Positions 1-51,853 of a stretch of DNA of 64,000 nucleotides are shown in pieces. The DNA is taken from IMG/VR virus record IMGVR_UViG_3300021387_000529, positions 218,811 through 282,810 of that record; one strand, given 5' to 3'. The notes beneath the pieces are model-generated. The model ran no database searches, was not told the DNA's origin, and saw only the letters and a program-made list of their open reading frames with translations. The position numbers and the translations under genes were made by a program. Positions within the stretch are counted from its first letter, which is position 1; each line of letters opens with the position of its first letter. Source of the DNA: a virus (taxonomy: Duplodnaviria; Heunggongvirae; Uroviricota; Caudoviricetes).

Positions 1-104
1 GGAGTAAAAATAGCTACAGAATGTGTCCCATCATCAATGTATTTTCCTGCTAATAGTTTTTCTATAGTTTTTTGCTTCCAGTTATGCTCTAATAGAACTT
101 CCAT
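1..104 (-). CDS. hypothetical protein, N-terminal fragment (gene runs off the left edge)
   Basis: ATG at 104-102 on the minus strand, open to the window edge (MEVLLEHNWKQK...). An ACTAATT box lies 4 nt upstream of the ATG and there is no Shine-Dalgarno site, as in the other late-type genes. Confidence 0.35.
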   Translation of the reverse strand, partial: MEVLLEHNWKQKTIEKLLAGKYIDDGTHSVAIFT

Positions 105-120
105 AAAAAATTAGTTGAAA

Positions 121-357
121 TTATTTAAAGCTTTCCCTGTATTCCTTATCATAAGCGGCTTTTCTCATGTCTGGATATTTTAACATCTTTTGAGCAAATT
201 TAATAGTTGCTTCTTTTATTTTTTTACTTCCAGAAAGGCTCTTCTCAGCATAAGCGTCTAAGCTTTCTTTAGTATTTTCAACCTTTCCTTCTCTAATATA
301 TCTCGCAAGCCAAAGTCCTTCTTCAACATATACTTGTGGTGTGCATGCCATAACCAA
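121..357 (-). CDS. hypothetical protein (78 aa)
   Basis: ORF with an AAGGAGG Shine-Dalgarno site (gataaggaggactttggtt-ATG) and a consensus early promoter upstream on the minus strand. Confidence 0.6.
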   Translation of the reverse strand: MVMACTPQVYVEEGLWLARYIREGKVENTKESLDAYAEKSLSGSKKIKEATIKFAQKMLKYPDMRKAAYDKEYRESFK

Positions 358-379
358 AGTCCTCCTTATCTTTTGTTTT

Positions 380-420
380 TATATTAATATATGAAAATTT
401 TGTTAGAAATTCAAAAATAT
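380..420 (-). promoter_or_regulatory. early-class sigma-A-like promoter (minus-strand copy): TTGAAT, 17 bp spacer, TATATT, within ttTCATATATTAATAT
   Basis: Reverse complement of 380-420 matches the 9-copy consensus TTTTTGAAY-N12-TtCATATATTATAT. It lies upstream of gene 121..357. Confidence 0.6.
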
Positions 421-462
421 TTTTTGAACTTATCACAGACTTTTCATATATTATATTCGTAA
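421..462 (+). promoter_or_regulatory. early-class sigma-A-like promoter: TTGAAC (424-429), 17 bp spacer, TATATT (447-452), discriminator ATATTCGTAA
   Basis: Copy 1 of the conserved motif tttttgaacttatcacagacttttcatatattatattcgtaa, about 22 nt before the Shine-Dalgarno site and ATG of 484. Confidence 0.65.
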
Positions 463-483
463 CCAACAATCAAGGAGAAAACA

Positions 484-819
484 ATGGCAAAATACAACTA
501 TCATCTTGAAGAAACAAAAGATGCAGGTTCACTTTATGCTTACTGTGATGTTTTCAATCTGCACTTTATTCACTTTGAGAAGTGGAACAGTGGAATTGCC
601 CTTGTCGACCTTGAAAGAGGCAAAGCAATCTTCAATGGCCAGAACGGCAAATCATACATTTTTGATGAAGACGTTCCTGAAGATTGGATTGAAGACCAGT
701 ACAACAAATGTGTTGACAAATACAGCCCAATTTCTTCTTACGCTGCTAACAGAATTAAGTTTGACAACGAAGCTGCAGTAAGAAAAATCATCAATGCAAA
801 AAGAGCTATGGACTACTAA
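484..819 (+). CDS. hypothetical protein (111 aa)
   Basis: ORF with Shine-Dalgarno site caaggagaaaacaATG, directly downstream of the early promoter. Confidence 0.65.
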   Translation: MAKYNYHLEETKDAGSLYAYCDVFNLHFIHFEKWNSGIALVDLERGKAIFNGQNGKSYIFDEDVPEDWIEDQYNKCVDKYSPISSYAANRIKFDNEAAVRKIINAKRAMDY

Positions 820-1003
820 AATGGAAAAACTTAATTGGAAACCTTGGAATAAAGAAGCTTACAGAACAATCAAACCCGGAAGGTATCATGTCAAGCTTGA
901 TGATGGAACTATAACATATGATGACTTCAAAAACCGAAGGTCTTTTGGCTATGGTTTTTCAGGTTATGTTGAAAAACACATTGTAGAATATGCTGAGTGG
1001 TGA
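794..1003 (+). CDS. hypothetical small protein (start uncertain; alternative ATG at 821)
   Basis: Short ORF overlapping the end of the previous gene with no clear Shine-Dalgarno site; translational coupling is possible. Confidence 0.4.
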   Translation: MQKELWTTKMEKLNWKPWNKEAYRTIKPGRYHVKLDDGTITYDDFKNRRSFGYGFSGYVEKHIVEYAEW

Positions 1004-1017
1004 TAAGGGGGATAACA

Positions 1018-1353
1018 ATGTCAAAAATCACTGAATTGCTCGACAAACTTGAAAAGATTGAAAATGGTAAACTTGAAAAAATCAAGAAAATGCGTGAAAA
1101 TAAAGGCGCAATTGAATATTGGGAAGACCATGGAGACGGCGGTTTTTGGAAGCCTCTCACTGAAGAAAAAGCAGCGAAGTTTGCAAATGACCATTGGGAA
1201 CTTGATGAGCTTCGTCTCAGTCTGTATTACCTTGTTAAAACAGATGCTGGTATTCGTATCTTGAATGCAGAAGAATACGCAACTTATACGGGAAAAGCTA
1301 CTGTCCTCTATCAGGGCAGCTATACCGCATGTAAAGACTTTATTAAGGTGTGA
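1018..1353 (+). CDS. hypothetical protein (111 aa; the track ORF starts at GTG 997)
   Basis: In-frame ATG at 1018 preceded by the Shine-Dalgarno site taagggggataacaATG. Confidence 0.55.
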   Translation: MSKITELLDKLEKIENGKLEKIKKMRENKGAIEYWEDHGDGGFWKPLTEEKAAKFANDHWELDELRLSLYYLVKTDAGIRILNAEEYATYTGKATVLYQGSYTACKDFIKV

Positions 1354-1356
1354 CAT

Positions 1357-1884
1357 ATGTATGAAGCATTATTTCAAAGAATTAAATCAACAGACTTTCC
1401 ATTGAAATGCAGAGGAATGTATTACTTTGCAAAAGGGCGCCACGCGCATCAAGAACGAAAAGGAAGCGGTTTTCCATACTTCGTTCATCCACGTGGAGTT
1501 GCTTATATTGTAATGGAACACAATGGTACAATTGACCAGATAAATGCCGCACTTGCCCACGACCTTTTAGAAGACACAGAAACATCTTTCCTTGAGATTG
1601 CTGCAATTGGTTCAATTCGTTGTGCAGAAATGTGTGCTGAACTTCGCAACAACAAGTTTACGATTGCTGAAATTGGAAAGGAAAAGTACCTTGAAGACAA
1701 ATTGATGAGAATGGACCCAGACACACTTCTCATCAAACTTGCAGATATGTTGTACAATTCGTATGATATGCCTGCAGAACAAGCCGCGCTCAGAATGATG
1801 TCAAATGCACGTAATGTGATTTTGAAAAGACTTGACCTAACGGAGGACCACAGACAGCTCGCGAAGCTAGTTTTCTGCAGTTAA
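1357..1884 (+). CDS. HD-domain phosphohydrolase, SpoT/Mesh1-type small alarmone ((p)ppGpp) hydrolase-like
   Basis: HAHQERKGSGFPYFVHPRGVAYIV...INAALAHDLLEDT matches the RelA/SpoT hydrolase HD motif (H..Q.RKSGEPYI.HPL.VA...AALLHDV(I/V)EDT). The protein is 175 aa. Confidence 0.7.
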   Translation: MYEALFQRIKSTDFPLKCRGMYYFAKGRHAHQERKGSGFPYFVHPRGVAYIVMEHNGTIDQINAALAHDLLEDTETSFLEIAAIGSIRCAEMCAELRNNKFTIAEIGKEKYLEDKLMRMDPDTLLIKLADMLYNSYDMPAEQAALRMMSNARNVILKRLDLTEDHRQLAKLVFCS

Positions 1885-1896
1885 TATTATAACTAT

Positions 1897-2457
1897 ATGA
1901 AAACTTTGATTTGTGGCCCAATGTACTCTGGAAAGTCAACTGCACTTTTCCAGAGAATGGAGCGCTTACTATTCGCAAAAAAGAAAGTGCTTTTAATCCG
2001 TCCTCAAAAAGATGATAGAGGATATTTTACGCATTCAGACGGCATTGATATTGAGAAACTTGAAAAGAACTTCCCAAACCTTGTCGTGTTGAAATTTAAG
2101 TCAATTGATGAATTTTTAGTGAGAAATATTAAAGCTGACAAATTTGATGCTGTCTTTGTAGATGAATATTTTATGATTCCAGGATCTCATCATCTTTGTC
2201 ATCAAACAGACTTTGATGTGTATTTTGGCGGGCTTTTGGCAACATCTGAATGCACACTTTTTGATGAGACTGTAAAGATTTTGCCATATTGTGACAAAAT
2301 TAAAAAATTAAACTCAGTATGTATGGATTGTGGCTCTGAATTAGCTTCATACTCATATGCTGATTTTAAGAAGACTTCTGAAGTTGATGTTGGTGACACA
2401 AAATACAAATGTTTGTGTCAAAAATGCTATGAAAAAAGGATGACTAATAATGGATAA
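1897..2457 (+). CDS. tdk: thymidine kinase (TK1 type)
   Basis: P-loop GPMYSGKST at the N-terminus, VDEYFMIP, and a C-terminal zinc ribbon (CMDCG...CLCQKC) typical of type-II thymidine kinases. The protein is 186 aa. Confidence 0.85.
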   Translation: MKTLICGPMYSGKSTALFQRMERLLFAKKKVLLIRPQKDDRGYFTHSDGIDIEKLEKNFPNLVVLKFKSIDEFLVRNIKADKFDAVFVDEYFMIPGSHHLCHQTDFDVYFGGLLATSECTLFDETVKILPYCDKIKKLNSVCMDCGSELASYSYADFKKTSEVDVGDTKYKCLCQKCYEKRMTNNG

Positions 2458-2917
2458 CAGCGTCTATACATATTCTGACCATTTTATAAAAATTGATGAA
2501 GAATTTATGCGACCAGACTGTGACAACTGGGAAAAATATGGAAAACTACATATTCCTAAAAGTGTCAAAAAATTTTTTGATGGGCGGCAGCCTGGTTACA
2601 GAATAAAAGCAGAGCATCCAAGCCCATCTTTTTGGGGCAATTCACAAGACAGTGAGTCAGTTCTTAAAAAATTTACTGAGCAGCTTTTTGTTGGCCAAGT
2701 TGAGTGGTCTGACCCGAACCATATTTGTAAACATTGTGGAAGGTTTTACGACCCAGCATATGAGTTTATTGAGGATGAAACAATTCTCAATTTTCTTAAA
2801 GGACAATGGGGTGATGAAAAATGGCCAGACTACTGTCCAGAATGTGAGCATGATTTTTATGACTTTTGCAATAATGCTGCTCAGGCATTTTATGATAGAG
2901 ACAAAATAAAGGACTAA
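2450..2917 (+). CDS. hypothetical Cys-rich (zinc-finger-like) protein
   Basis: CKHCG...CPEC pairs; overlaps the tdk stop. Confidence 0.5.
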   Translation: MDNSVYTYSDHFIKIDEEFMRPDCDNWEKYGKLHIPKSVKKFFDGRQPGYRIKAEHPSPSFWGNSQDSESVLKKFTEQLFVGQVEWSDPNHICKHCGRFYDPAYEFIEDETILNFLKGQWGDEKWPDYCPECEHDFYDFCNNAAQAFYDRDKIKD

Positions 2918-2920
2918 GAC

Positions 2921-3622
2921 ATGGGAAAAGACTTCATAGCGCACTTTGTTGAATTCAAAGATTGGAATTCTGCACTCAACAAGCTTAATAATATGAAAAA
3001 AGCTCGTTATATTCAAGGAGAAGTTTATTCTCTTAATGAGCCTGAACAATCATTTTTTAATGATCGCTATTTTACAGCTAAGTATGACATTAAACATCTT
3101 AATGAAATATATTATACCATCAAAGTTGAAAAAATAAATGGTTTTTCTAAATATGGATATGACTTCCATCCGATGTCGTATCTTTTCAAAGATGGATGGA
3201 CACGATGCCAAGGCTATAAGATTACAATTCGTGGCACAAAATTGAATAATGAAAAAACTGGAATAGATGACTTTTGGCATGGTATGGGGCCAAATGAAAT
3301 AAACTCTATTGTTGACGCAATTGCTCCAGGCTATGATTTTAACTATGCTCATAGCTATAAACCAAAGTTTACAACACTTCCAAAAGAGCTCAAAGAAGCC
3401 GCTAATAAAGCAGCTAAACACTATGACAAATTTGGGGTTTTGATTGAGCTTGGTGACATCATCGTTATTCCGTATGTTATAAATAGCAGTGCCCGCACCT
3501 GTGTTGAAGTTGTTGATAAAATTACTGACACTCGTGTAAATAATGTCACAGCTGAAAAAGTTGTGGTTATACGCACAAATAACACAAACAAAAAACTTAC
3601 GTTTGGAGGTCTTGTAAAATGA
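2921..3622 (+). CDS. hypothetical protein (233 aa)
   Basis: ORF with Shine-Dalgarno site aaggactaagacATG. Confidence 0.5.
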   Translation: MGKDFIAHFVEFKDWNSALNKLNNMKKARYIQGEVYSLNEPEQSFFNDRYFTAKYDIKHLNEIYYTIKVEKINGFSKYGYDFHPMSYLFKDGWTRCQGYKITIRGTKLNNEKTGIDDFWHGMGPNEINSIVDAIAPGYDFNYAHSYKPKFTTLPKELKEAANKAAKHYDKFGVLIELGDIIVIPYVINSSARTCVEVVDKITDTRVNNVTAEKVVVIRTNNTNKKLTFGGLVK

Positions 3623-3936
3623 ATTTTTTTAACAGTGTTGTTTTTAATAGTAATGAAAACAAACTTTCTATTGACTCAGAAGGCGAAGTTGAAATCATTG
3701 TTGATGGAAAAACAATTGCTACTGTAACAGCAAAGAATGTCACTTTCAAAGGAAAAGCAAATAAAGTGAATGGCATGCAATTTAACATAATTGGTGATGT
3801 TTCTGGCGATGTTGATGGCACAAATATTACAATTCAAGGTAATGTTGGTGGCGGTGTTGATGGCACAAATATTACAGTTAAAGGAAGTGTAGATGGCGAT
3901 ATTGATGGAATAAATGTAACTGTCCGTAGTAAATAA
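3619..3936 (+). CDS. bactofilin-like (DUF583-type) beta-helical repeat protein
   Basis: Tandem ~9-residue repeats (IIGDVSGDVDGTNITIQGNVGGGVDGTNITVKGSVDGDIDGINVTV) fit the bactofilin G.V.G.V...I.I repeat pattern. The protein is 105 aa. Confidence 0.45.
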   Translation: MNFFNSVVFNSNENKLSIDSEGEVEIIVDGKTIATVTAKNVTFKGKANKVNGMQFNIIGDVSGDVDGTNITIQGNVGGGVDGTNITVKGSVDGDIDGINVTVRSK

Positions 3937-3961
3937 ATATGAATATAGGAGAAGGTAATAA

Positions 3962-4342
3962 ATGACCAAAGAAATGCTTAAAGCATGTGAAGAATTTCTT
4001 AAGGATGAGAAAAATAGTCCTTCTAATTATAATTTCAAGTCTGATATTTTCAAAGAACTCAGCCATGACAAAGAACAAGAAAAAGAAGCATCATCTGTTG
4101 AGAAGAGATTTTACGATTTTCAAAACAGACTGCGAAAAATATTTATGATTGATGAAAACCATTTTGATATTGACTATTATATCATAAGCGCTGCATTAGC
4201 AGAAGAGTGCCAATATCAAGGTCTCAATCCTCGAGATGCTGTTCGCAGCGCTATGAATGCTCTTAGGTCTGTTATTGTCATCAACAAATATTCAAAATTA
4301 GAAGCAAATTATGAAACGAATAAGATGACGCCTATTCTTTAG
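3962..4342 (+). CDS. hypothetical protein (126 aa)
   Basis: ORF with Shine-Dalgarno site aggagaaggtaataaATG. Confidence 0.5.
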   Translation: MTKEMLKACEEFLKDEKNSPSNYNFKSDIFKELSHDKEQEKEASSVEKRFYDFQNRLRKIFMIDENHFDIDYYIISAALAEECQYQGLNPRDAVRSAMNALRSVIVINKYSKLEANYETNKMTPIL

Positions 4343-5559
4343 TTTCCTCCGCCCCTTTGTATTGCTAACTGCCCAACGAGACCGATAGAATTAAGAATTG
4401 GCTTAAGGTCAGTTTCGATCTCAGTTCGTGTTTCTTTCAATACAGCTGGGTCTAGTTGGCCTGCAACGTCAGTCTTACACAAACTACGCAAAATATTGAA
4501 ATTACGTAAAACTTCTGAACGTGCCATTGGGCGAGCAATTGGCTCTAAATCATCAAAGTCAATATCATCCCAGTTAGGTGACCAACACAACCATTTAATG
4601 TTTAAATTGCCACCAATTGTGCTGTAACCACGAGCATATAGTTTTCCATTTTCTTTTACTTTGCTATAATGCTCACGTCTGAAAACATTCAACATTCCTT
4701 GCTGTGCCATTAGAGCATCAACCATATTAGTTTGTGAGTCTGCTGTTCCAACAAAACCTGGTACCATTTTGTTACGATAACGCAAACCACCACCATAACG
4801 GTTTGAGACTGTTCCCATTCTTCCCATAGCCATTTGTCTTTCGCCAAAGAATGAGAATGGGTTCATAGATTGTCCGCCACCTCCTGTTGCTCCACCTGGT
4901 GTACAGTAATATGGCACGCAACCATATGCATTCTCTGGAAACTCAATGTCGAATGCATTTCCCTGAGCAATATTGCCATATCCCTCTTCACGGATAATTG
5001 GTCTGAATGTATAGTATCTTTGCATTGCAGGCCTAATCATATATTTTACAATCTGTTCTTTTGAATATTCAATATCTTCAAAATTGGCGAATGGGAAACC
5101 AATAATTGTCAAAATTGTTTCAAGTTCATCATCACTGATATTTATTCCGCCATAAGCTGCAACTTTTGTGAGATAGCCTTCTTCTATTGAAGTGTATGGA
5201 ATGAAATTATTATCTGGCAAAAATCCACCATTCCATTTTGCTGGCAAAATACCAAAATATGGAAGCTGAATGCCTTGAACTGCCGCATGAATACCTTCAA
5301 CATCATCTGCTGTCAGTTCATCCCATCTGATTGGAAACTTCGTTTTATTGTCAACACGATAGTCTTCTTGAATATAAACAATTTTATTATGAAGCGGAGC
5401 TCCTGAAACACGTGTTCCATCTAAAGACGCATCAACACGAACGACTGAGCCACGATTGTATATCTTTGTATTCTTATCAACAGTAACCTGTCCTAAAGCA
5501 TTCCAAGTATTCAAAATTTCTTCTTCAGAAGATTGCAATAAATATTTAAACTCATCCAT
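4339..5559 (-). CDS. putative virion structural protein (406 aa, Gly-rich segment), late class
   Basis: Monocistronic minus-strand gene. The ACTAATT box sits 5 nt upstream of the ATG (gacatAACTAATTttatt-ATG) with no Shine-Dalgarno site. The size is compatible with a capsid-type protein, but no fold could be assigned from sequence. Confidence 0.55.
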   Translation of the reverse strand: MDEFKYLLQSSEEEILNTWNALGQVTVDKNTKIYNRGSVVRVDASLDGTRVSGAPLHNKIVYIQEDYRVDNKTKFPIRWDELTADDVEGIHAAVQGIQLPYFGILPAKWNGGFLPDNNFIPYTSIEEGYLTKVAAYGGINISDDELETILTIIGFPFANFEDIEYSKEQIVKYMIRPAMQRYYTFRPIIREEGYGNIAQGNAFDIEFPENAYGCVPYYCTPGGATGGGGQSMNPFSFFGERQMAMGRMGTVSNRYGGGLRYRNKMVPGFVGTADSQTNMVDALMAQQGMLNVFRREHYSKVKENGKLYARGYSTIGGNLNIKWLCWSPNWDDIDFDDLEPIARPMARSEVLRNFNILRSLCKTDVAGQLDPAVLKETRTEIETDLKPILNSIGLVGQLAIQRGGGN

Positions 5560-5576
5560 AATAAAATTAGTTATGT
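5560..5576 (-). promoter_or_regulatory. late-class ACTAATT box immediately upstream of ATG 5559
   Basis: One of at least 14 start-proximal AACTAAWT boxes. Here it also forms an inverted repeat AATTAGT-N8-ACTAATT. Confidence 0.45.
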
Positions 5577-5706
5577 CATACTAATTGTTTATATCACTTG
5601 AGGAATTAGCTTGTTGTCCTCAGCCTTGAATAATATTGATAGGCGATGCAGTAGCATTTTATATGGCAATTATAGCAAATCTAACAAACATTAGGAGAAT
5701 TGACAA

Positions 5707-6753
5707 ATGAGAGTTGACACAAACGCTCAGAAACGCGAAGCTCTTGAGAAAAGACTCGCAGAAAAACGCGCTTTGAGAGAAGGCGCTCAGAAGAAAGTTC
5801 CAGCTTATATGAAGAAACCAACAGCAGACAAAACTGAGAAGTTGGAAGAGGGAAAAACAAATGACTTTGACATTGTTCTTAAAAACTTCAAAGCTCATAA
5901 GCTTGCCAAGCTTGGTGAGTCTAAAGTAACATATAAAGAAATTCGTGCACTTCGTGAAGCTGTAAATGAAGCTAACAAGAAAGGTGTAAAATTGGCAGAA
6001 GCAGATGAAAATTTCGCAGCTCCAGCAGCAGACCCAAATGCAGCAGCAGCCGCTCCTGCTCCAGCAGCTGGTGGTGTTTCACCAGATGTTCAGACACAGA
6101 TTCAGTCTCTTCTTTCACAGGTTCAGGCACTTGCACAGGCAGCTGGCGTAAACACAGCAGACTTCGGTGCAGACCCAAATGCTAATGTTCCTGCAGTTGA
6201 TGGAATGGCACAGCCAACAGCAGCTGATGGTGCAGCTCCAGCAGCAGATCCAAATGCTCCTTTGATGGAAGCTGTAAACAAAGCTCGTAAAGCTAACAAC
6301 GGTAAATGTGATGAAGCTACATTTGTAGACCTCAAAGCACAATTTGGTAAAGCATTGGTTGAGAGCCTTGGTGCTACTCGTGACCGCATCGCAATGCGTT
6401 CAGCTAAACTTGACACATTGAATGAGAAGTTTGAAGGTGACTTCGCTTCTGCATATTTTGAGAATGTTGGCTTGAAAGAGGCTATCTCACCAATCGCTGG
6501 TATTCCTTCTGAGAAAGAAGTTGCTAACGGAACAGCTGATGCTGCTAAAGGTTTGGCAAAAGAGTTGAAAACTCCTGTTGCTTGGCCAGACCATCAGATT
6601 ACAGGCGCTCCACTTCAGGGTGAAGGAGCTAAACAGCAGAAAGTTAAGGAATCTACTTCTCCTGTAACTGATGCTTATGTTGAAAATTTCTATGCTCCAA
6701 AACTTTCTCTCGACACAATTCGTGAGTCTATGCAGAGAGGCATTCTCGGCTAA
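5707..6753 (+). CDS. Ala/Pro-rich protein with repeated A(A/P)ADPNA motif (possible head or scaffold-associated; function unknown)
   Basis: 348-aa ORF with Shine-Dalgarno site ttaggagaattgacaaATG. It has an N-terminal charged coiled-coil-like segment, an A/P-rich low-complexity linker with three ADPNA repeats, and a globular C-terminus. Its G+C is locally higher. Confidence 0.6.
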   Translation: MRVDTNAQKREALEKRLAEKRALREGAQKKVPAYMKKPTADKTEKLEEGKTNDFDIVLKNFKAHKLAKLGESKVTYKEIRALREAVNEANKKGVKLAEADENFAAPAADPNAAAAAPAPAAGGVSPDVQTQIQSLLSQVQALAQAAGVNTADFGADPNANVPAVDGMAQPTAADGAAPAADPNAPLMEAVNKARKANNGKCDEATFVDLKAQFGKALVESLGATRDRIAMRSAKLDTLNEKFEGDFASAYFENVGLKEAISPIAGIPSEKEVANGTADAAKGLAKELKTPVAWPDHQITGAPLQGEGAKQQKVKESTSPVTDAYVENFYAPKLSLDTIRESMQRGILG

Positions 6754-6754
6754 T

Positions 6755-6784
6755 TTGAATAGGGGCGAAATGCCCCCTATTCAA
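6755..6784 (+). other. GC-cored 12-bp hairpin (ttgaataggggc-gaaa-gccccctattcaa, 1-nt bulge) with no U-tract, abutting the Shine-Dalgarno site of the next gene
   Basis: Seen directly in the sequence. It is not a canonical intrinsic terminator and may be an mRNA stabiliser, processing site or attenuator. Confidence 0.4.
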
Positions 6785-6797
6785 TGGAGGAAATAGA

Positions 6798-7220
6798 ATG
6801 ACAAAAGCAGAATATATTAAAGGATATTCAGAATACAGTGCAAAAGAAAATCTTCTTGAAAGAGACTTCAGCAAGTTTGCTGCTAACTGTAAAGAAGATG
6901 GTTTTAATGTAACACGTTCTGACTATCATCGCTATATTGAAGCTGTTAAGTCTGCTAAAAAGGGCAAAAAGCTCACAGAAGCATTGTTCTTGAATGATGA
7001 TGATGACCCAAGAAGCTTCAATGACATTTATGGAGAAGAAGGTATTCCACTTGATGGAGATGAAAATACTCCTGCGACTGTTGAAAACCTCGGTCCAGCT
7101 GAAATCCAGCAGTTGAGAGACTTGGCTAACCAAATTCTTGCAATCGTTGGCACAGGTGCTCCAGCTCCAGATGAAAGCATGACAGGTACGCCAGACTTCG
7201 ATGAAGGTGAAGAAGAGTAA
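6798..7220 (+). CDS. hypothetical protein with an acidic C-terminus (140 aa)
   Basis: ORF with Shine-Dalgarno site aatggaggaaatagaATG. Confidence 0.55.
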   Translation: MTKAEYIKGYSEYSAKENLLERDFSKFAANCKEDGFNVTRSDYHRYIEAVKSAKKGKKLTEALFLNDDDDPRSFNDIYGEEGIPLDGDENTPATVENLGPAEIQQLRDLANQILAIVGTGAPAPDESMTGTPDFDEGEEE

Positions 7221-7244
7221 TCTTCTTTTTTGAATTGCTATAAA

Positions 7245-7285
7245 ATAAAAGCCACTTTTTCACAAGTGGCTTTATTTATTTTTGA
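7245..7285 (+). terminator. rho-independent terminator
   Basis: aaaagccactt-tttcac-aagtggctttt hairpin followed by a T-run. Confidence 0.6.
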
Positions 7286-7322
7286 ACTTTTATAAAATTT
7301 TTCATATATTATTAATGTAATG
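7277..7322 (+). promoter_or_regulatory. early-class promoter copy (TTGAAC 7282-7287, 17 bp spacer, TATATT 7305-7310)
   Basis: tttttgaacttttataaaatttttcatatattattaatgtaa matches the consensus. Confidence 0.6.
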
Positions 7323-7337
7323 GAGAAAATTTAAATA

Positions 7338-8666
7338 ATGGAGAAAGCACTCTATATACATGGTCTTGGTGGTTCAGGAACAGGAAGTTCTGCTACCAAT
7401 GTTAGAAAAGCTCTTGAAGGTATCTATGACGTTGTTGCGAACACATATGACCATTTAGACCCTTTAGAGACTTTTGCAAGAATTAAAGAAGATGCTAAAA
7501 ATGTTGATGTGATTATTGCGTCTTCACTCGGTGCTTTTTATGCTCTGTCACTTGACACAATTAAACCAATTTTAGTTCTTAATCCTTGCATTTGTCCTAA
7601 AAAGGTTATTCCTGGACTTTTACGTGAAGACCAGAAAAAAGGTTATGATGAAGAAAAATGTTTCGAAGAATGGGATATTCTTGAAGAAAGTTGGGCAAGC
7701 ATCGACAGTGAAAATTGCGCAATGCGTTTTGCTGTTTTTTCAGATAAAGACGAATATTTCTCTTTTGAAAAAGAGTTTACAGCAAACTTCAAAAACCTTC
7801 ATTATGGCTTGAAGAATACGAAGTTTATTAACGGAACACACGAAATTGCAAAACATACTGATCAATTGAAGCAGGCTTTTTCAGCATTTTTCAAATATCT
7901 TGCTGAATTAAGCGATGCTGACAATTATGGCTCAGAACAAGTTGAATTAAATGAGTCTCATCTCCAGGAAAAATATCTCAATATGTTTTTCAATTCTGGA
8001 GACGCTCGACAAGAACATTTGATTGACGCAAACTTTGATGAAATTTGGGAAATCCTTGATAAAGCATACGCTTACACAAAAAACAACCAGCGTGGAAAAG
8101 GTGGCCCAGGTGGTTTTACTACTAAAGAAGACTTGTATGCAGATTGTTTGAAGTCTAATGCAATGGTAAAATGTATCAAGTCAGGTGGCGGTAAAATGCA
8201 AGCAGTTGCTATTTACAACCTCAATCGTGGTGGAAGAAAACTTTCATTGATTGGTGGAGATTGTGAATGGAACCCTGAAAAAGGAAAATATGTTGCAACT
8301 GAAGACGGAAAGAAAGCACTTTATAAGATTATCAAAGAAGACATAAAAGACAGTGGCCGTAACTTCTGGGGTGAAATCTCAGATGCTGCTGAAATCTTGT
8401 ATTTCTTCAAAACAAATGCACAATCTATCCCACAATCTGTTGTTGAAGCTTTGATGCCTGGAAAAGGAATACAAAATACTTCACACCATGAGCCTGTGAA
8501 GAGAGATAAGTCTGGAAATGAATACGAAAATCGCTTTGATAAAGACTACTACGAGCGTCCAATTGACGGAAATATCCATCGTAAGGTTGCTGTTACAGCT
8601 CCAGAAAATGTAGACAAAGTTCAAGACTTTCCATTAGTTAGATATAATAAAAAGAAAGGAGAATAA
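7338..8666 (+). CDS. YqiA/UPF0227-type alpha/beta-hydrolase (esterase) domain fused to a C-terminal domain of unknown function
   Basis: The N-terminus LYIHGLGGSG...SSLGAFYA...LVLNP parallels E. coli YqiA (LYIHGFNSS...SSLGGYYA...VVVNP), with a nucleophile elbow (A/G)xSxG. The ~250-aa C-terminal part (GKGGPGGF...GGGK...GGDCEW) is unassigned. The protein is 442 aa. Confidence 0.5.
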   Translation: MEKALYIHGLGGSGTGSSATNVRKALEGIYDVVANTYDHLDPLETFARIKEDAKNVDVIIASSLGAFYALSLDTIKPILVLNPCICPKKVIPGLLREDQKKGYDEEKCFEEWDILEESWASIDSENCAMRFAVFSDKDEYFSFEKEFTANFKNLHYGLKNTKFINGTHEIAKHTDQLKQAFSAFFKYLAELSDADNYGSEQVELNESHLQEKYLNMFFNSGDARQEHLIDANFDEIWEILDKAYAYTKNNQRGKGGPGGFTTKEDLYADCLKSNAMVKCIKSGGGKMQAVAIYNLNRGGRKLSLIGGDCEWNPEKGKYVATEDGKKALYKIIKEDIKDSGRNFWGEISDAAEILYFFKTNAQSIPQSVVEALMPGKGIQNTSHHEPVKRDKSGNEYENRFDKDYYERPIDGNIHRKVAVTAPENVDKVQDFPLVRYNKKKGE

Positions 8667-8671
8667 CACAC

Positions 8672-9136
8672 ATGAGTGAAATCGTAGAAGCTGCAAAGAA
8701 ACGCTATCCAGAAGCTGAAATTGAAGACATTGGCGATGACACAGTCTCAATTGATGGCTATATTTGGCATGCATACAAAGAAGATGAGCTTGAAAGAAGG
8801 GCAAAAGCTCTTATTAAAGAAGTCTTTGAAACATCTTATGATGATGCAGGTTTGACAACTTTTGTTAAAGAAAATGGAGGCTATAAAGACTTCTACAAAG
8901 ACTCATATATCAATGATATTCGTATTTCTGATGACTCTGGCATGTTTGACAGTATGTCAGATGAACAAATCATCGATGAGCTTGAAGCTATGGATTGGTT
9001 TAACGATGGCTATACCAAAGAAATGCTCGACTTTGACAAAATGACAGACTACACATATGATGTTGACGGTTTTTCTATTCTTGATGAAAATGGCAACAGC
9101 TTCTATGAAGACGGTTACAATTTTATTCAAGAATAA
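8672..9136 (+). CDS. highly acidic hypothetical protein (154 aa)
   Basis: The ORF is rich in Asp and Glu and follows 7338..8666 in the same operon. Confidence 0.55.
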   Translation: MSEIVEAAKKRYPEAEIEDIGDDTVSIDGYIWHAYKEDELERRAKALIKEVFETSYDDAGLTTFVKENGGYKDFYKDSYINDIRISDDSGMFDSMSDEQIIDELEAMDWFNDGYTKEMLDFDKMTDYTYDVDGFSILDENGNSFYEDGYNFIQE

Positions 9137-9138
9137 TT

Positions 9139-9180
9139 AAAAATTGAACAAACTCAGATTAATTTATATATAATTTACTA
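9139..9180 (+). promoter_or_regulatory. sigma-A-like promoter variant (TTGAAC 9144-9149, 17 bp spacer, TATATAAT)
   Basis: ttaaaaattgaacaaactcagattaatttatatataattt upstream of the Shine-Dalgarno site AGGAGG of 9194. Confidence 0.5.
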
Positions 9181-9193
9181 TAGGAGGCTACAT

Positions 9194-9934
9194 ATGCCAC
9201 GCATAAAAAAACCTGTTGAAATCTATTCTAAAACTGGGCTTCCATTCCGTCCAGATATGGAGCTTGTCATCAATGCACAGAAAGGCGATGAGAAGTCTTA
9301 TGTTGAACTTTGGGACAAGTTCTTCTTGCTCAGACAGAAAGAAAAGTTTGAGTTTATCAATTGGTGTAAACAGCATCACATCGAAAATGCAGTGTACCAA
9401 GACTATGTAGACTCTTGGGATGCTGATGCTTGGGAAAAATTCCGCAATCAAATGCCTGGTATTCGTATTGATGAGCTCAAAGCAAAGGGTTATACAAATG
9501 ACAACTGGGGTATCACAATTCGTTTGAAAGGCTACTTTGACGTTGTCAACCGTTCTTACAGCAATAACATCCTTAAGAAATTGAACAATGAAGTTCCAAA
9601 TGTGCGCTTTTATGACAAAGATGATGATGAAGGCGTATCGGTTCTCGATAATGTCTCACGTGATGAAGACATCCTTAAAGGATATGCGAAGAAAATCTTG
9701 AAAACTTCATATTCACGTATGCTTGCAGACTTGAATGTAAAGCAGCGTCAAGTTGTAACTTTGAAAGAAAAAGATTCTTCAGTTTCAGCAATCGTTCGTG
9801 AACTTGGAATAAAACGAAAAGAAGCAACAGATGCGCTCGAATATGCAAAGACACGCCTTGAATATTGGGTTGAAAAGTCTTCAAAAGAAGAAGGCGTGCC
9901 AATGACATATCGCGATATGGTTGAATATTTTTAA
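9194..9934 (+). CDS. putative phage-encoded sigma factor (sigma-70/ECF-like regions 2 and 4)
   Basis: LVINAQKGDEKSYVELWDKF resembles region 2, and the C-terminal LNVKQRQVVTLKEKDSSVSAIVRELGIKRKEATDALEYAKTRLEY resembles a region-4 helix-turn-helix. The protein is 246 aa. Confidence 0.45.
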   Translation: MPRIKKPVEIYSKTGLPFRPDMELVINAQKGDEKSYVELWDKFFLLRQKEKFEFINWCKQHHIENAVYQDYVDSWDADAWEKFRNQMPGIRIDELKAKGYTNDNWGITIRLKGYFDVVNRSYSNNILKKLNNEVPNVRFYDKDDDEGVSVLDNVSRDEDILKGYAKKILKTSYSRMLADLNVKQRQVVTLKEKDSSVSAIVRELGIKRKEATDALEYAKTRLEYWVEKSSKEEGVPMTYRDMVEYF

Positions 9935-12900
9935 GACTTCCATGAAGCGCTCTTCTTTCCTTCAATTTTATTATTGATTTCTGAAAGAAGAGCATAAATA
10001 TCATCCAAAGACTTTGCTCCATTATTTGAGGCTTCAGTAGACTTATTAGACCCAAATGAAAATTTAGACTTCCAATCTGCGATTGGAGAACTGCTTGTTG
10101 ATGTATTTTTTTGAACATCTTTTAGAATCTTCACAGAGTCTTTTTTCTTTGAGAGTTCAACCAATTCATTATTCAATGCATGAATAGATGACGCTAAGCT
10201 ATTAACAACATCTTTTGATGACGATAATGACTCAAATGACTTATTAAATGAGTCAGTAAAACTTGACAATGTATTTGCGTCAAATTTTGTAAGTTCTCTC
10301 ATTGCATCAACAAATTTCTTTGCATTCTTTTTCGATGGAGCTTCTTTTATTCCTTTTTCAATTCCTTTAAATCCACTCTTTAATTTTGAGCCATCAATTT
10401 TTGAAACAGCTTTTGTAATAAAGTCAATAGCTTTTAGACCTTTTACCATTGCTTTACTATCAAATTGAGCAGCAGCATTTCCAGCATCAATAAACTTCTT
10501 GAAAACATTTTTCATAGTTTTACCAATAAGAAGCATACTGACGCTTAATGGAATACATGCTGCAGCTGCAACAACTGAAGCAAGAGAAGCAAGACCGATT
10601 TCTCCATAGATTGGAATTAACTGGCTGATTTTATCTGATATTCCATTTAAGTCTGGAAGTTTGGCTAAAACAGACATTGAAGCGAAAAGTGCAGCTGCTG
10701 TTGGGATTAACAACAATGATGACGCCAACATCAATGGAATTGTTGGAATAATGACAATTGAAGCCAATCCAGCAATTGCCAATGCTCCAAATGTTTTTGC
10801 AAGTCCAAAGGCTTTATCAGTTATCACATTCATGTCTGGGAACTTTTCCATAATTTTGAATGCTCCAAGCAATGCTAATGATGAAGCTAACAATAATACA
10901 CCAGCAACTGTCATCATTGGTGCTAAAACAGCTAATGGAACTGCTGCAGCTGCGGCGACTGTTGTTGCTAAAAGAATTCCTGCTAAACCAACCATAGCAA
11001 GCATCATTTGTCCTACACCACCATTCTCATCTATAACTTGTTTTATTTTTCCAACCATCATCACAGAAAGCAACATTGCTCCTGTTGCGATAACTACTGC
11101 AATTCCTACTGCTGCTAAAGCTCCTGCTCCTGCAAGTACATATGGTGCTATTGCTCCAAGCGCAATAACAGCGGCAAAAACAATTGCCATCACTCCAAAT
11201 CCAAAAAGAACCATTTTCCAGTTCTGTTTCATAAAGTCACCAACTTTTGCAAGAAGTTTTACTGAGATTAAAAGACTTAAACTCATAACAGCTAATGCAA
11301 CAGCTAGAACAATCAATGCAAATGCGCCTTTCAAACAATTTTTTGCGAGCTTAGCAAGTAAGATTAAACCAGCAAATAAGACACCTGCAAGCAATAAACC
11401 TGGAATAGCTAAAACTGTCATTGGAACAGTCAAAAACAAAAGTGTTGTTGCTGTCAACAATGCTGTTGCAAAAACACTTAACAATATTACAGTTGCAATT
11501 CCCCATCCAAGTTCTTTCTTCAAATCAGAAAGTCTATTAAGCATAGTAGAAGTTGCATTAATCATATTTGTAAATTTTTTGTCAATGTTTTTGAGATGAG
11601 AAGCTATTCCTGCGGCGAATTTCATTGCTTTCATAGCGATAGCTAAGTTTATAAACAATGGTGTCATCAACATGCATGATACAATAGCTCCAGCAACTTT
11701 AGAAGGTTTAATATCATTAAATCCACTGAAAACTTTTGCAAGTTTACCAGTAAGAAGAGCGAGTGAGCTAAGCCCATCTTCTAATGATTTTTCATGTTTC
11801 TTAATAAATGAACTTGTAAATTTCAAAGCTAAAAACATCGGAACGAGCTGCAATGAGAATGCGATTATTCCAAACGCAATTAAATTTATATTCATTGCAA
11901 TGTTTTTTACAAGTTTAGTTTTATCTGAAAGCTCTTTTACGAGAGCAATATCTATTCCTGAGAATGCTTCTTTAATCTGTAATACCCAACTGTTAATTCC
12001 ATTTGATAAAAAATAAGATGCCAAAACAGCTGGTAAGATGGCAATCGCAAGTGGTGAAGTTGCGATAATCAATGTGCTCATAGCCATCAAACTCAATGCA
12101 ACCTTTGATATTGTTTTTGTATAATCTACATATTTTTTAGAGTCAAATTTATCAAGTGGTTTTTCAATTTTTTTAACATTTTTTACCCAATTTATTATTC
12201 CACTAAAACCAAGTTTAGAAGTTAACAAAAGCGCAACTTGGTATGGAACACCAGCTAAAATAGCAATTGATGCTCCAATTAAGCTGATTGAAGACTTTCC
12301 AATGTCTTTTGCTATTTTTACGATATTTCCAGAGTCAAAAGTTGCTACTTCACTGAGTTTATTTAAGCTTCGAGCATAATTTGTCAAACCTTTAAGATAA
12401 TTTTTTCTTCCATCTGGGAAAAGTTTATTAACCAATCCACTTAAAGGACGTGACTTAATAATAATTAAACTTATAGAGTTGATTGTTTTTGCAGTTGTTC
12501 TAATATCATTAGAAAACTTAAGTAAAGCTGAAGAGTCAATCTTCATATTTATAATGTCTTTATTAAAAGACTTTGCCCAGTTTTTTATGCCTTTTGATGC
12601 ATTGTTTAAAGCTTTTGTGTCTAATGTTTTTACTTTTGAGATGTCTTTTACAAGTTTATTGAATGACTTAATATATTGAGATGCCGCCATTGTATCACCA
12701 GCGACGATAGCAACTGCATTTATATCTCCACCTTTTTTATCGTTTTTCTTTTTTGTTCCAAAAATGTTTCCAAAAAGATTTTTTATACCACCAAACATTT
12801 TTCCAAAAAGTTGTGGAATTGATGAGAAAAATCCTTTTAAGTCTTTAAATGAACTTGTTATTGTATTCTTAATTCCAGCAAATGGCTTCGTTATTGAGTC

Positions 12901-13468: not shown

Positions 13469-13488
13469 TATTTAGTTATAACTAAATA
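13469..13488. promoter_or_regulatory. perfect 20-bp palindrome TATTTAGTTATAACTAAATA placing an AACTAAAT box before both divergent genes (13464 minus strand, 13495 plus strand)
   Basis: Seen directly in the sequence. It is a bidirectional version of the late-class box. Confidence 0.5.
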
Positions 13489-18018: not shown

Positions 18019-18693
18019 GCACTCTTTCAACACTAATGTATTTTGTGTTGTTATGTCATAATAATAAAAAACAGTTAAATTCTCTTTAGTCTTCTCTTCA
18101 AAATAGACTCTATCAAGTTTATTTTTTTCTAAAGAGAATTTCAAAATTTCTCTTCCTTCTTTTAAAATATCTTTTAAAAATTCATGATTACTACTTACAC
18201 CATGCTCATAAAAATAAAGGTCTGTTATTTGGTTTTTTAGATTAAACGAACAATAATTCAAATAAAATATTTTTCCGTTCAAACCAAAGACAAGCTCATT
18301 TTTAATGTTGCTACTTAATATTTCAACCAGTTCTTTTAATGAACTAATGTAAAAATTCTTTATTTTATATATTTGTCTTCTGTTAAAGAAATCTTCACTG
18401 ATAGACGGATTTATGATTTCATAATATTCTTTTAATTTTCCATCTTTTATTTTTTCTGCTCCAAAATAACTGTCACCTCTGTCATAAAAATATGCATATT
18501 CTTTTGCATCTTCAATTGACGGAATTTTACCATTTATGTAGTCCTCATAAGGAACTTTTATCTCAATCTCAGTGATAGTCTTTTTGGTGCATTTAGACTT
18601 CGCATTTTTTAGTCCTAATTTTCTGCGAAGTCTATTTGCTTTTCTATTTGCTCTTTTAATTTCTCGTTTAATTCTTCTTGGTAAAGTTTCCAT
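17986..18693 (-). CDS. hypothetical protein with an Arg/Lys-rich N-terminus (nucleic-acid-binding-like); start uncertain (the track ORF extends to 18747)
   Basis: The internal ATG at 18693 (METLPRRIKREIKRANRK...) overlaps the SbcC stop by 26 nt. No Mre11/SbcD phosphoesterase motifs are present. Confidence 0.45.
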   Translation of the reverse strand: METLPRRIKREIKRANRKANRLRRKLGLKNAKSKCTKKTITEIEIKVPYEDYINGKIPSIEDAKEYAYFYDRGDSYFGAEKIKDGKLKEYYEIINPSISEDFFNRRQIYKIKNFYISSLKELVEILSSNIKNELVFGLNGKIFYLNYCSFNLKNQITDLYFYEHGVSSNHEFLKDILKEGREILKFSLEKNKLDRVYFEEKTKENLTVFYYYDITTQNTLVLKECLLQRLFRNKG

Positions 18694-20719
18694 TTTTTGC
18701 CTCAAAAATATAAATATCGTCATAATTCTCTTCCAAATAACTTCCAAGAGCTTTTTTATGAGATATTAAAAACAGTTGATGGAACTGATGAAGATTTAGT
18801 AAAACTGAAAAAAGTTTAATGGAGTCATTATCGCTTGAGGCTTTATCGATTTCATCTCCAACAAAAAAGTCTATTTTGTAATATTTTGCCAAAATAGTCT
18901 TAAAAGCTGTTGTCAAAACTGCACGTTCAAATCCAGATGACATTCGTGTATCAAGCCATCTATTCTTATTTTCATCAACAACCGTATTGTCTTTTGTATA
19001 CAGCAAATCACAGCCTTTTTTAGAAGTCTTTACAAGGACATCATATTTTGGGAAAATCATATGAACGAAGGCATTTAGATCATTTTTGATTGTATCACAA
19101 AAAACTTTAGTTCGATACTGTGGCAACAACTTATTCAAAACTTCCCAAGCTTCATCATAAACAGATGCCATTATATTCACTTCTGTAAGTTCAGCTTCAT
19201 TCTTTCCCAAAGCTTCATCTATGGCTTTAATTTTATTTCTCTTCTCTTCATTTTGTCTCATGATAAATTGATTTTTATCATTTGCGCGCTCATATTCTTT
19301 TATGTCAGCAAGAATTTTATTATTCTCATTGACTATGCCAGAAACATCAACTTTCTTAATAGAAGAAACTTTATCTTGAAGAGTCTTCTGCTCAACCTCT
19401 AATTTTGAAATTAAGTCTTTCAAGTCTGCAAGTCTTTTTCTGACTAAAGGCTCTTCTGCTAATGAATAACTAATGCCTTTTTTAACTTCCTCAGACTCTA
19501 CAATCATATTCTCATAATTTCTTTTCATATGAGTATATTCTGTGTGAGCTGCTGTCAATTCAGCACTTGTGCTCTGAGCGTTTGTGTTTGCTGTCCTATA
19601 ATAGTCCACCATTTTATCAGCATCTAAACATTTTTCTTTAAGTTCTGAAATCTCTTTCTCAAAATGAGCGACAACATTGTCTGTGCTTTGGCCACAAACT
19701 GGGCACTTTCCATCTCTACATTTTTCTTCTCTCTCTTCAAAAGATTTCAACTCAAATCTGAGGTTGTTTCGTGTGTCAGTCGCTTCGCTTAATTGTTTGT
19801 AAGTCTCTGCAATTGTGTCTTCAATTTTGTTTATGTCTTTGCTTCTTTCAATTGCTTCTGCATCAAGCTCAGCAATTTTTTCCTTAAATTCTTCAATTCG
19901 CTTGTCTTCATCTACAAGTTTATTTTTCAAATTGTCAATGTCACGAAGTTTATTTTCATATGGAGCTACATCGAGTTGGTTTTTATGAAGAGATAATTCG
20001 ACTTCACGGAGCTGAGACATCAATTCATCTTGTTTTTTCTGAGCTTCACTTACTTTAGAAATTTTTTCCAAGTTTTCAGATAGTCTATTATTAAATTTAA
20101 TAATCTGCTCAGCTGTAAAAGGCATTGCAATAGCTTGCTCAAAATGAGACAATTCAGACTTCAAAGCATTTTTAGACGCAGTGTCAATACGCAATTCTTC
20201 GAGCTGTTTTTTTGCCTGTTGCAATTTTTCAGTAATTATCTGCTTTTGTGAGTCATAATTAAAATTAAAAAGATTTTTAATGTATTCAAGACGCGAAGCT
20301 GATGTTTGGTCTACAATATCTTTCGCATTCTGCATTTGGAACATAATTTTTGAATAATATGAAATTCCAAGAGCAGAGAGTTTTTCAGACGCTTTTGTAT
20401 TTTTATATGTTTCGCCTTTGTAGTCTAATTCACATTCATATGGTGTGCCATTCACACGGTTCAATGTTAGGCGTATTTCTGCATCATCCTCATAAATCTT
20501 AAACTTTAAGACAATATTAGCGTTATCACACCCTTGTTTTACATATTCACCATATGTGCCAGAACGTTTTTCATCACTAAAACATATTGATATTGCTTCG
20601 AATACAGCAGATTTTCCAGAAGCTGGTTCTCCATAAAAATAATTTATATTTCCAAAATCAAATGAAGCATTTGTAATGTTCATGAAATTTTTAATTGAAA
20701 GAGACTTTATTCTTAACAT
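18668..20719 (-). CDS. SbcC/Rad50-like SMC-family ATPase (recombination nuclease subunit)
   Basis: N-terminal Walker A (YFYGEPASGKSAV), a long coiled coil with a central CPVCGQ zinc hook, a C-terminal signature (MSSGFERAV), and Walker B plus D-loop (FFVGDEIDKAS). The protein is 683 aa. Confidence 0.85.
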   Translation of the reverse strand: MLRIKSLSIKNFMNITNASFDFGNINYFYGEPASGKSAVFEAISICFSDEKRSGTYGEYVKQGCDNANIVLKFKIYEDDAEIRLTLNRVNGTPYECELDYKGETYKNTKASEKLSALGISYYSKIMFQMQNAKDIVDQTSASRLEYIKNLFNFNYDSQKQIITEKLQQAKKQLEELRIDTASKNALKSELSHFEQAIAMPFTAEQIIKFNNRLSENLEKISKVSEAQKKQDELMSQLREVELSLHKNQLDVAPYENKLRDIDNLKNKLVDEDKRIEEFKEKIAELDAEAIERSKDINKIEDTIAETYKQLSEATDTRNNLRFELKSFEEREEKCRDGKCPVCGQSTDNVVAHFEKEISELKEKCLDADKMVDYYRTANTNAQSTSAELTAAHTEYTHMKRNYENMIVESEEVKKGISYSLAEEPLVRKRLADLKDLISKLEVEQKTLQDKVSSIKKVDVSGIVNENNKILADIKEYERANDKNQFIMRQNEEKRNKIKAIDEALGKNEAELTEVNIMASVYDEAWEVLNKLLPQYRTKVFCDTIKNDLNAFVHMIFPKYDVLVKTSKKGCDLLYTKDNTVVDENKNRWLDTRMSSGFERAVLTTAFKTILAKYYKIDFFVGDEIDKASSDNDSIKLFSVLLNLHQFHQLFLISHKKALGSYLEENYDDIYIFEAKNGNFTKKN

Positions 20720-35223: not shown

Positions 35224-35233
35224 TATAATATCT

Positions 35234-36055: not shown

Positions 36056-36076
36056 TATTATAAATAGAGGAAAATA

Positions 36077-49296: not shown

Positions 49297-49314
49297 AATT
49301 AAATAATTAGTTAT
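49297..49314 (-). promoter_or_regulatory. late-class AACTAATT box 8 nt upstream of ATG 49296
   Basis: Member of the start-proximal box family. Confidence 0.45.
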
Positions 49315-51479: not shown

Positions 51480-51504
51480 AATTCTCATTGTTAATATATT
51501 ATAC

Positions 51505-51845: not shown

Positions 51846-51853
51846 AGGTGAAT

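Follow-up and report, generated by a model that had tools for sequence, protein, structure and literature searches.

A 64,000-nt stretch of tailed-phage DNA (positions 218,811 to 282,810 of the IMG/VR virus record IMGVR_UViG_3300021387_000529), referred to here as the window, contains near its start a gene for a putative small alarmone hydrolase (SAH), which an earlier reading of the letters, the original prediction, had placed next to the thymidine kinase gene tdk. The interval 1357-2457 was found to be occupied exactly by two open reading frames (ORFs), both on the + strand and separated by 12 nt. These carry the following features, given like all coordinates below as window positions:

1357-1884, + strand: SAH gene, 175 aa, single hydrolase domain of the RelA/SpoT homologue (RSH) type, stop codon TAA at 1882-1884
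1456-1461 (R34-K35), 1486-1488 (H44), 1558-1563 (H68-D69), 1570-1575 (E72-D73), 1744-1746 (D130) and 1756-1758 (N134): predicted catalytic codons of the SAH gene
1897-2457, + strand: tdk, TK1-type thymidine kinase, 186 aa; residues 7-15 form the P-loop GPMYSGKST, and four cysteines make up a zinc site at the C-terminus

The family assignment was checked by a hidden Markov model search, in which the 175-aa protein matched Pfam HD_4 (PF13328) at 34.8 bits, above the gathering cut-off of 27.2 (E 1.6e-8). HD_4 and HD were the only Pfam matches, giving a single-domain architecture, and because a protein of this size with no second domain does not fit the long RSH enzymes, it was assigned to the SAHs. 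The NCBIfam model TIGR00691 (spoT_relA) matched at E 1.4e-15 over its N-terminal hydrolase region (profile positions 2-118 of 687). A sequence search of solved structures returned 21 chains at E < 1e-3, all of them MESH1, SAH or Rel/RelA/SpoT and led by human MESH1 (3nr1) at E 1.9e-12; beyond these, up to E <= 1, came only two chains of plant desaturases (E 0.48 and 0.82). Similarity to the individual SAH exemplars was uniformly low, with E-values of 1.9e-12 for MESH1, 4e-7 for Lmo0812, 7.5e-7 for RelH, 4e-5 for PaSAH and 5e-7 for SSU5 PaSpo.

The SpoT/Mesh1 hydrolase motif set on which the original prediction was built is present, and its AALAHDLLEDT string agrees letter for letter with the second motif block (A64-A-L-A-H68-D69-L-L-E72-D73-T74). 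The string previously given as RKSG.PY exists as a motif but reads RKGSGFPY, longer by one residue, within the first block H29-A-H-Q-E-R34-K35-G-S-G-F-P40-Y41-F-V-H44-P45-R-G-V48-A49; the third block is K127-L-A-D130-M-L-Y-N134. Residues R34, Y41, H44, H68, D69, E72, D73, D130 and N134 were invariant in 44 family members, and alignment with MESH1, M. tuberculosis Rel, the SAH of Salmonella phage SSU5 and BcepSaruman gp436 likewise left the catalytic residues unchanged. In MESH1, we take R24, H35, H61-D62, E65-D66, D122 and N126 to be the Mn2+-binding and catalytic residues; MESH1 R24, K25, H35, H61, D62, E65, D66, D122 and N126 align with R34, K35, H44, H68, D69, E72, D73, D130 and N134 of the phage protein. 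A further conserved motif at the N-terminus (K10, D13-F14-P15 and C18-R19) is specific to the clade of close relatives described below.

An AlphaFold2 model of the SAH, built from a 44-sequence alignment, reached a pLDDT of 95.1 and a pTM of 0.91. When compared by Foldseek to the PDB, it matched MESH1 at a TM score of 0.77 over all 175 aa and RelH at 0.71-0.74, the top 50 consisting of MESH1, RelH, PaSAH and Rel/SpoT-type chains together with Aph1 (7smg) at ranks 39-40. Half of the ten best matches in BFVD bore no name; the named half were phage and giant-virus proteins, either HD-domain or (p)ppGpp synthetase/hydrolase. Judged by sequence and by structure model, the product of 1357-1884 is, as the original prediction had it, an SAH: a stand-alone RSH-type hydrolase with a complete predicted active site.

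MESH1 (HDDC3; human and Drosophila, 3nr1, 5vxa, 9chy and 3nqw) ranked first among the solved structures in sequence and in fold alike, being of equal length and of the same all-helical HD fold. It differs in that identity over the fold alignment is ~25%, in carrying RKDPEG where the phage protein carries RKGSG, and in being the eukaryotic, metazoan SpoT orthologue with NADPH and 3′-phosphoadenosine-5′-phosphosulfate (PAPS) as documented substrates. A metabolic phosphatase of the MESH1 kind, removing the 2′-phosphate of NADPH or the 3′-phosphate of PAPS and thereby reshaping host cofactor pools, would fit the first place of MESH1 among the solved matches, NADPH and PAPS complexes included. One bacterial SAH also hydrolyses NADPH, but this substrate is ~40-fold poorer for it than for Mesh1 (PMC9765508). 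Given also the low identity to MESH1 and the published tests of phage SAHs, which indicate alarmones and toxic small alarmone synthetases (toxSAS) as targets (PMC7229694), we regard this role as very unlikely.

The SAHs of phages SSU5 (PaSpo) and PVP-SE1 (PbcSpo), which neutralise all five toxSAS toxins tested (Jimmy et al. 2020, PMC7229694), are likewise single HD_4 proteins of ~175-215 aa, phage-encoded and without an adjacent synthetase. The SSU5 protein, which is in routine use to tame CapRel (PMC9712102), is 35% identical to the window SAH (pairwise E 6e-14) with all catalytic residues in common, and its gene, SSU5_099, is also surrounded by small hypothetical genes. This identity (~33-35%) extends over the core only, leaving the C-terminal third unaligned, and the window SAH differs from both proteins in forming part of a separate clade with its own N-terminal motif and in host and ecosystem, its setting being the ruminant gut.

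Among phages larger than 200 kb, an HD-family enzyme termed “HD-alarmone PDease” has been catalogued as a counter-nucleotide defence, that is, as a proposed counter to nucleotide signalling, in a survey of 224 jumbo phages (Iyer et al. 2021, PMC7824862). Annotated homologues occur in the Burkholderia phages BcepSaruman and BcepSauron and in Vibrio and Erwinia jumbo phages, BcepSaruman gp436 being 35% identical over 86% of the query; these phages infect Proteobacteria, whereas relatives of the window SAH at >=50% identity come only from the ruminant gut. The long Rel/SpoT enzymes (RelSeq 1vj7, T. thermophilus Rel 6s2t and A. baumannii SpoT 7qpr) resemble the window SAH in the six hydrolase motifs and in fold, but the phage protein lacks their synthetase, TGS and ACT domains, so the allosteric control of the long RSH enzymes cannot apply to it. 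Aph1 (7smg) is also an HD-fold enzyme acting on 3′-pyrophosphorylated purine nucleotides and is (p)ppApp-specific (Ahmad et al. 2023, PMC10083569). Membership of the Aph1 family was rejected, as there was no sequence match at E <= 1 and the fold match stood at rank 39 (E 7.8e-3, TM 0.54).

The original prediction had also raised the alternative that the protein groups with generic HD phosphohydrolases such as dNTPases. In this reading, a dNTPase or 5′-nucleotidase would work with the thymidine kinase in nucleotide salvage, for which the 12-nt distance to tdk and the name of the matching PHROG families, merely “metal-dependent phosphohydrolase”, can be cited. The sequence and fold matches were instead RSH-type: no dNTPase, SAMHD1, YfbR or HD-GYP protein was found in the Foldseek top 50 or among the 21 sequence matches, no similarity to dGTPase, SAMHD1 or YfbR appeared in the Pfam or NCBIfam matches, and a phage dNMP phosphatase matched the model in BFVD merely at E 0.93. 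No variation was seen in the ED pair typical only of RSH enzymes or at the R, Y and N positions, and tdk is absent near 17 relatives, as detailed below. A generic HD or dNTPase identity was rejected on the absence of such enzymes from the structural matches, the retained RSH-specific residues and the unconserved tdk pairing, and we consider it extremely improbable.

That the neighbour of the SAH gene is a thymidine kinase, as first proposed, was borne out by Pfam TK (PF00265) at 97.5 bits against a cut-off of 20.6, by PHROG 592 and NCBIfam PRK04296, and by the best solved match, 2orw (E 8.6e-14, residues 3-179 aligned). The protein contains VDEYF, a DE(x)QF-like motif, and its cysteines follow the pattern CMDC...CQKC; the lasso-loop Arg of human TK1 is presumably replaced. 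Public gene calls (L001-L006) begin tdk at an internal ATG at 1921 (178 aa) and lose the first P-loop residues. Since the solved kinase aligns from residue 3 onwards, P-loop included, 1897 is taken as the correct start.

To what extent the two genes belong together was judged from the relatives of the SAH. When 12 window proteins were compared by tblastn to 11 IMG/VR phage contigs encoding SAHs of 55-74% identity, the SAH alone was matched: thymidine kinase was absent within 5 kb of the SAH gene in all 11, as were homologues of the ten other window proteins compared, which flank the pair. In six more relatives, whose neighbourhoods had precomputed Pfam annotation, there was likewise no thymidine kinase near the SAH and no partner common among them, the usual surroundings of the gene in relatives being small unannotated ORFs. 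A functional SAH-thymidine kinase pair was rejected on its absence from all 17 relatives examined, and as the adjacency is not conserved outside this phage species, it gives no reason to assume functional coupling. The kinase gene is a separate one, for nucleotide salvage, and its coupling to the hydrolase is not demonstrable.

The claims that the SAH gene is transcribed together with tdk and from an early promoter were assessed against the signals around the two genes, which are the following:

424-463, + strand: sigma70-like promoter motif, -35 TTGAAC at 424-429, 17-nt spacer, -10 TATATT at 447-452, core TATATTATATTCGTAAC at 447-463
484-4342, + strand: nine-gene cluster with the SAH gene as the fourth, intergenic distances -26 to 25 nt
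1345-1350, + strand: Shine-Dalgarno-like AAGGTG, 6 nt before the SAH start codon
1881-1891, + strand: start-proximal element TTAATATTATA, overlapping the SAH stop codon and 5 nt before the tdk ATG

Between the SAH ATG and the stop codon at 1351-1353, which ends the preceding ORF, there are 3 nt. The nearest promoter motif stands ~900 nt upstream at the head of the cluster, where a generic promoter scan also picks the site 424-463, so that a conserved sigma70-like motif does exist, but none adjoins the SAH gene itself. The 17-mer core TATATTATATNCGTAAC is present in 6 copies in the window, with 0.02 expected; every copy is on the + strand and sits between genes, in front of a + strand cluster; when the copies were aligned, AAAWTTTTTTGAAY and TTTTCA were common to them upstream, and one copy heads an operon with NAD-dependent DNA ligase and dCMP deaminase. 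The full promoter-like block reads AAAWTTTTTTGAAY-N13-TTTTCA-TATATTATAT-NCGTAAM, with + strand copies at 447, 27186, 28180, 34374, 51828 and 62022. A TTGACA-17-TATATT-like promoter of its own and an AAGGAG ribosome-binding site directly precede the SAH gene in no fewer than 7 of 18 relatives. A pattern of the primary-sigma type fits transcription by host RNA polymerase and early or early-middle expression, and by analogy early expression of the SAH gene is plausible.

Co-transcription with tdk by read-through is likely, although a further signal probably belongs to tdk itself. A scan of 1-6000 gave no + strand terminator-like site and so does not speak against co-transcription. The tdk gene is without a Shine-Dalgarno sequence, and its TTAATATTATA element belongs to the motif family TTAATAT(AT)TATA / TTAATATAATA, of which 9 matches were found against 0.2 expected, 7 of them located 1-16 nt before start codons, that of GroEL included:

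1881-1891, 35220-35230, 36052-36062 and 51491-51503, + strand; 51365-51355, 27152-27140 and 20746-20736, - strand: start-proximal copies of the motif

Six of the seven start-proximal copies precede genes lacking a Shine-Dalgarno sequence (tdk and GroEL among them), and the gene at 36077 has one. The TTAATATTATA element could serve tdk as an internal promoter or as some other signal close to the start, and the family as a whole may represent a promoter class yielding leaderless or very short-leader mRNAs. Because tdk lacks a Shine-Dalgarno sequence and has a motif in common with GroEL and other genes, its control probably differs from that of the SAH gene.

The remaining members of the cluster are small ORFs on either side of the pair:

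484-819, 794-1003 and 1018-1353, + strand: three small upstream ORFs, overlapping or nearly abutting, also called in public contigs
2450-2917, 2921-3622, 3619-3936 and 3962-4342, + strand: four ORFs downstream of tdk, gaps -8 to 25 nt

The upstream ORFs (484-1353) had no Pfam match at curated cut-off and no PHROG or PADLOC match, the sole Pfam match among them being AOX in the third ORF at 13.5 bits against a cut-off of 22.7 (E 0.057). Scans of Pfam, PHROG and PADLOC gave no significant family match for the four ORFs of 2450-4342 either. The 155-aa ORF at 2450-2917 (+), which shares 8 nt with the end of tdk, has two CxxC pairs (CKHC...CPEC) and is zinc-ribbon-like, with no family match. These neighbours bear on whether the SAH could serve as a type IV hydrolase antitoxin in a module with a toxic alarmone synthetase carried by the phage, a role for which ATfaRel, an SAH beside the FaRel toxSAS that acts as its antitoxin, is a precedent (PMC7229694). 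Seven flanking ORFs (484-3622) were without a synthetase match in Pfam at E <= 0.1, nine (121-4342, including 121-351) were without a PADLOC match, and no synthetase domain was recorded beside the SAH in the six relatives with Pfam-annotated neighbours. With no flanking match of synthetase or defence type, the window SAH is not part of a toxSAS module; the toxin-antitoxin reading was rejected on these Pfam and PADLOC results, and we give it almost no credence.

The reading that we favour, and hold to be likely, is that the window encodes an intact SAH which removes the 3′-pyrophosphate of alarmones, is probably read soon after infection and would spare the infected cell an alarmone- or toxSAS-driven shutdown. 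From its residues, the protein is most likely an Mn2+-dependent 3′-pyrophosphohydrolase acting on (p)ppGpp and/or (p)ppApp. By homology, H44, H68, D69 and D130 would bind Mn2+, and the E72-D73 pair with R34 and N134 would support hydrolysis of the 3′-pyrophosphate of these nucleotides. An additional substrate may be tRNA with its 3′ CCA terminus pyrophosphorylated by toxSAS enzymes, as with MESH1 and ATfaRel. With its Shine-Dalgarno sequence and its place in a cluster behind a sigma70-like promoter, the gene could be read by host RNA polymerase soon after infection; alarmones and toxSAS products would then be kept low, and the infected cell would continue transcription, translation and nucleotide synthesis. 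The gain for a ~300-kb phage would be an infected cell that is blocked from alarmone- or toxSAS-driven shutdown. Such a role in lowering alarmones, or in countering alarmone-based defence, would agree by analogy with the published tests of phage SAHs, and in published work SAHs cleave (p)ppGpp and (p)ppApp and, in some cases, NADPH too (PMC9765508).

Several points weigh against this reading. Identity to any characterised SAH is just 20-35%, and no named subfamily could be assigned. The characterised SAHs include promiscuous enzymes acting on (pp)pGpp, pppApp and NADPH (PMC9765508) at one extreme and (p)ppApp-only ones at the other, and the substrate preference of the window SAH is not readable from its sequence. 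As for timing, sigma70-like hexamers are frequent in this sequence of 35% G+C, with 36 found against 20 expected, and the label “early” rests on analogy with other phages.

The relatives of the SAH were collected from several sources. A protein search gave 136 homologues, the best 120 of which were all at least 49% identical to the query and lay mostly on contigs of tens to hundreds of kb; PF13328 was carried by 118 of these 120. In a library of 1.84 billion protein representatives, 5,286 clusters matched at E <= 1e-3, about 355 at E <= 1e-10 and 16 at E <= 1e-30. Among 185,579 bacteria and archaea (one genome per species), three contigs carried SAH relatives at 65-72% identity, the next being at <=38%. 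These three contigs (L028, L029 and L030) are labelled Bacteroidaceae, Clostridia and Rickettsiales, respectively; two are from ruminants (sheep reticulum and yak omasum) and the record of the third names no source. The conflicting labels suggest that phage DNA was probably mis-binned into bacterial genomes. Annotated phages appeared at <=38% identity (BcepSaruman, Vibrio and Erwinia jumbo phages, SSU5 and several uncultured phages of 480-640 kb), and at >=50% identity to the window SAH solely huge-phage contigs of the ruminant gut were found. The close relatives are compact (~175 aa) and 50-97% identical over many contigs. By sequence comparison, the large SAH family thus includes a compact clade, apparently confined to phages and the ruminant gut, to which the window SAH belongs.

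Within this clade, conservation of the SAH is high although its neighbours turn over completely. The window helicase and 406-aa protein had no IMG/VR relatives, compared to 11 for the SAH; as the method requires exact 8-residue matches, this is a weak hint of unusual conservation or mobility of the SAH.

The genes beside the SAH in single relatives were also recorded. On one 13.7-kb contig (L007), a Cas3-like helicase-nuclease and a Cas7fv-like protein at 9313-12675 lie near the SAH; the SAH of this contig is also present on contigs of up to 475 kb. A 417-kb contig (L025) has an intein-containing RtcB RNA ligase at 7752-10067 near the SAH, and another relative (L027) has an AAA_33 kinase, a metallophosphatase and an RNA ligase at 2325-4348 and 10287-10543. 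The nearest outgroup (P0124-P0139; loci L066-L072), at 42-46% identity, consists of phage proteins of 242-622 aa in which the SAH domain is C-terminal and is preceded by small, shuffled modules with no Pfam match, which a recurring linker, E(S/N)KEQLFDxILNEA, joins together. These small modules are also found alone in other IMG/VR phage contigs, and by eye the N-terminus of the window SAH, YEALFQRIKSTDFP, looks like the outgroup linker junction.

A possible but less probable reading, which overlaps the favoured one, is that the true target is tRNA bearing a 3′-pyrophosphate added by toxSAS or CapRel, so that the protein would be an RNA-repair enzyme of counter-defence. MESH1 and ATfaRel remove this 3′-pyrophosphate and restore tRNA with a toxSAS-pyrophosphorylated CCA end (bioRxiv 10.1101/2021.04.30.441581), and phage SAHs neutralise the tRNA-targeting PhRel, PhRel2, FaRel2 and CapRel, and FaRel as well (PMC7229694). 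The RNA-repair-type genes noted above in two relatives (L025 and L027) lie 2-5 kb from the SAH. On the other side, there is no RNA-repair gene near the window SAH, the neighbourhood is not conserved and the window has zero tRNA genes; the isoelectric point of the SAH family is ~6.5, which indicates no unusually basic surface and is uninformative on RNA binding. A bolder proposal, and one that we consider unlikely, is of a phage-restricted clade moving between dissimilar huge ruminant-gut phages as a dedicated counter-defence effector, its target maybe being tRNA pyrophosphorylated by toxSAS or CapRel; the C-terminal SAH domain in proteins of shuffled small modules would fit such an effector.

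The carrier of the SAH gene is a giant, uncultured phage, probably of ruminal habitat. The identical SAH protein, in the same gene order, is present on public metagenome contigs of 300,791 and 301,258 bp, indicating a source phage of ~300 kb, and a search of 50,697 phage records gave no near-identical DNA to window positions 1-8000. The G+C content of the 64-kb window is 34.6%. An Rfam scan of the whole window gave no match, ppGpp and PRPP riboswitches being among what would have shown, and no tRNA genes were found in the window. Shine-Dalgarno usage is strong (41 of 66 window genes), and together with promoters of the TTGACA/TATAAT type this suggests a host that is not a member of the Bacteroidota, as judged from what is generally known of such signals.

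Elsewhere, the window carries the following auxiliary, replication and large genes:

49704-51350, - strand: GroEL-like chaperonin (PHROG 5725, E 2.9e-100)
51848-52960, + strand: NAD-dependent DNA ligase
53442-53900, + strand: dCMP deaminase
18668-20719, - strand: SbcC-like protein
22256-24187, + strand: helicase
42226-49296, - strand: unmatched ORF of 2356 aa
13495-18018, + strand: unmatched ORF of 1507 aa
9931-13464, - strand: unmatched ORF of 1177 aa
4339-5559, - strand: unmatched ORF of 406 aa
5566-5574 (- strand), 13471-13486 (both strands), 25557 (- strand), 26379 (- strand), 49306-49314 (- strand), 53895 (+ strand) and 54872 (+ strand): sites of a third motif, (AT)AACTAAW

The ORFs of 2356, 1507, 1177 and 406 aa had zero Pfam or PHROG matches; presumably they encode parts of the virion or of a polymerase in a huge-phage lineage that has been little sampled. 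The third motif stands 5-9 nt before eight start codons, against 0.38 expected, and its genes mostly lack a Shine-Dalgarno sequence, these four large ORFs included. In the gap from which the 1177-aa and 1507-aa genes diverge, the motif makes up a perfect palindrome, TTAGTTATAACTAA. Its function could be that of a late promoter or of an alternative signal for translation.

The concept of phage SAHs, their fold and their occurrence in jumbo phages are already published, with tests in other phages, and the window SAH opens no new kind of system. What is added is modest: a distinct, well-conserved clade found so far only in huge ruminant-gut phages, with a sister group fused to arrays of shuffled modules. 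Tests to date cover just two phage SAHs, and if active, this well-conserved example from a huge phage would join the small set of phage genes thought to disarm alarmone and toxSAS responses. The compactness of the clade and the confident model make it convenient for learning whether the targets of phage SAHs are (p)ppGpp, (p)ppApp or modified tRNA.

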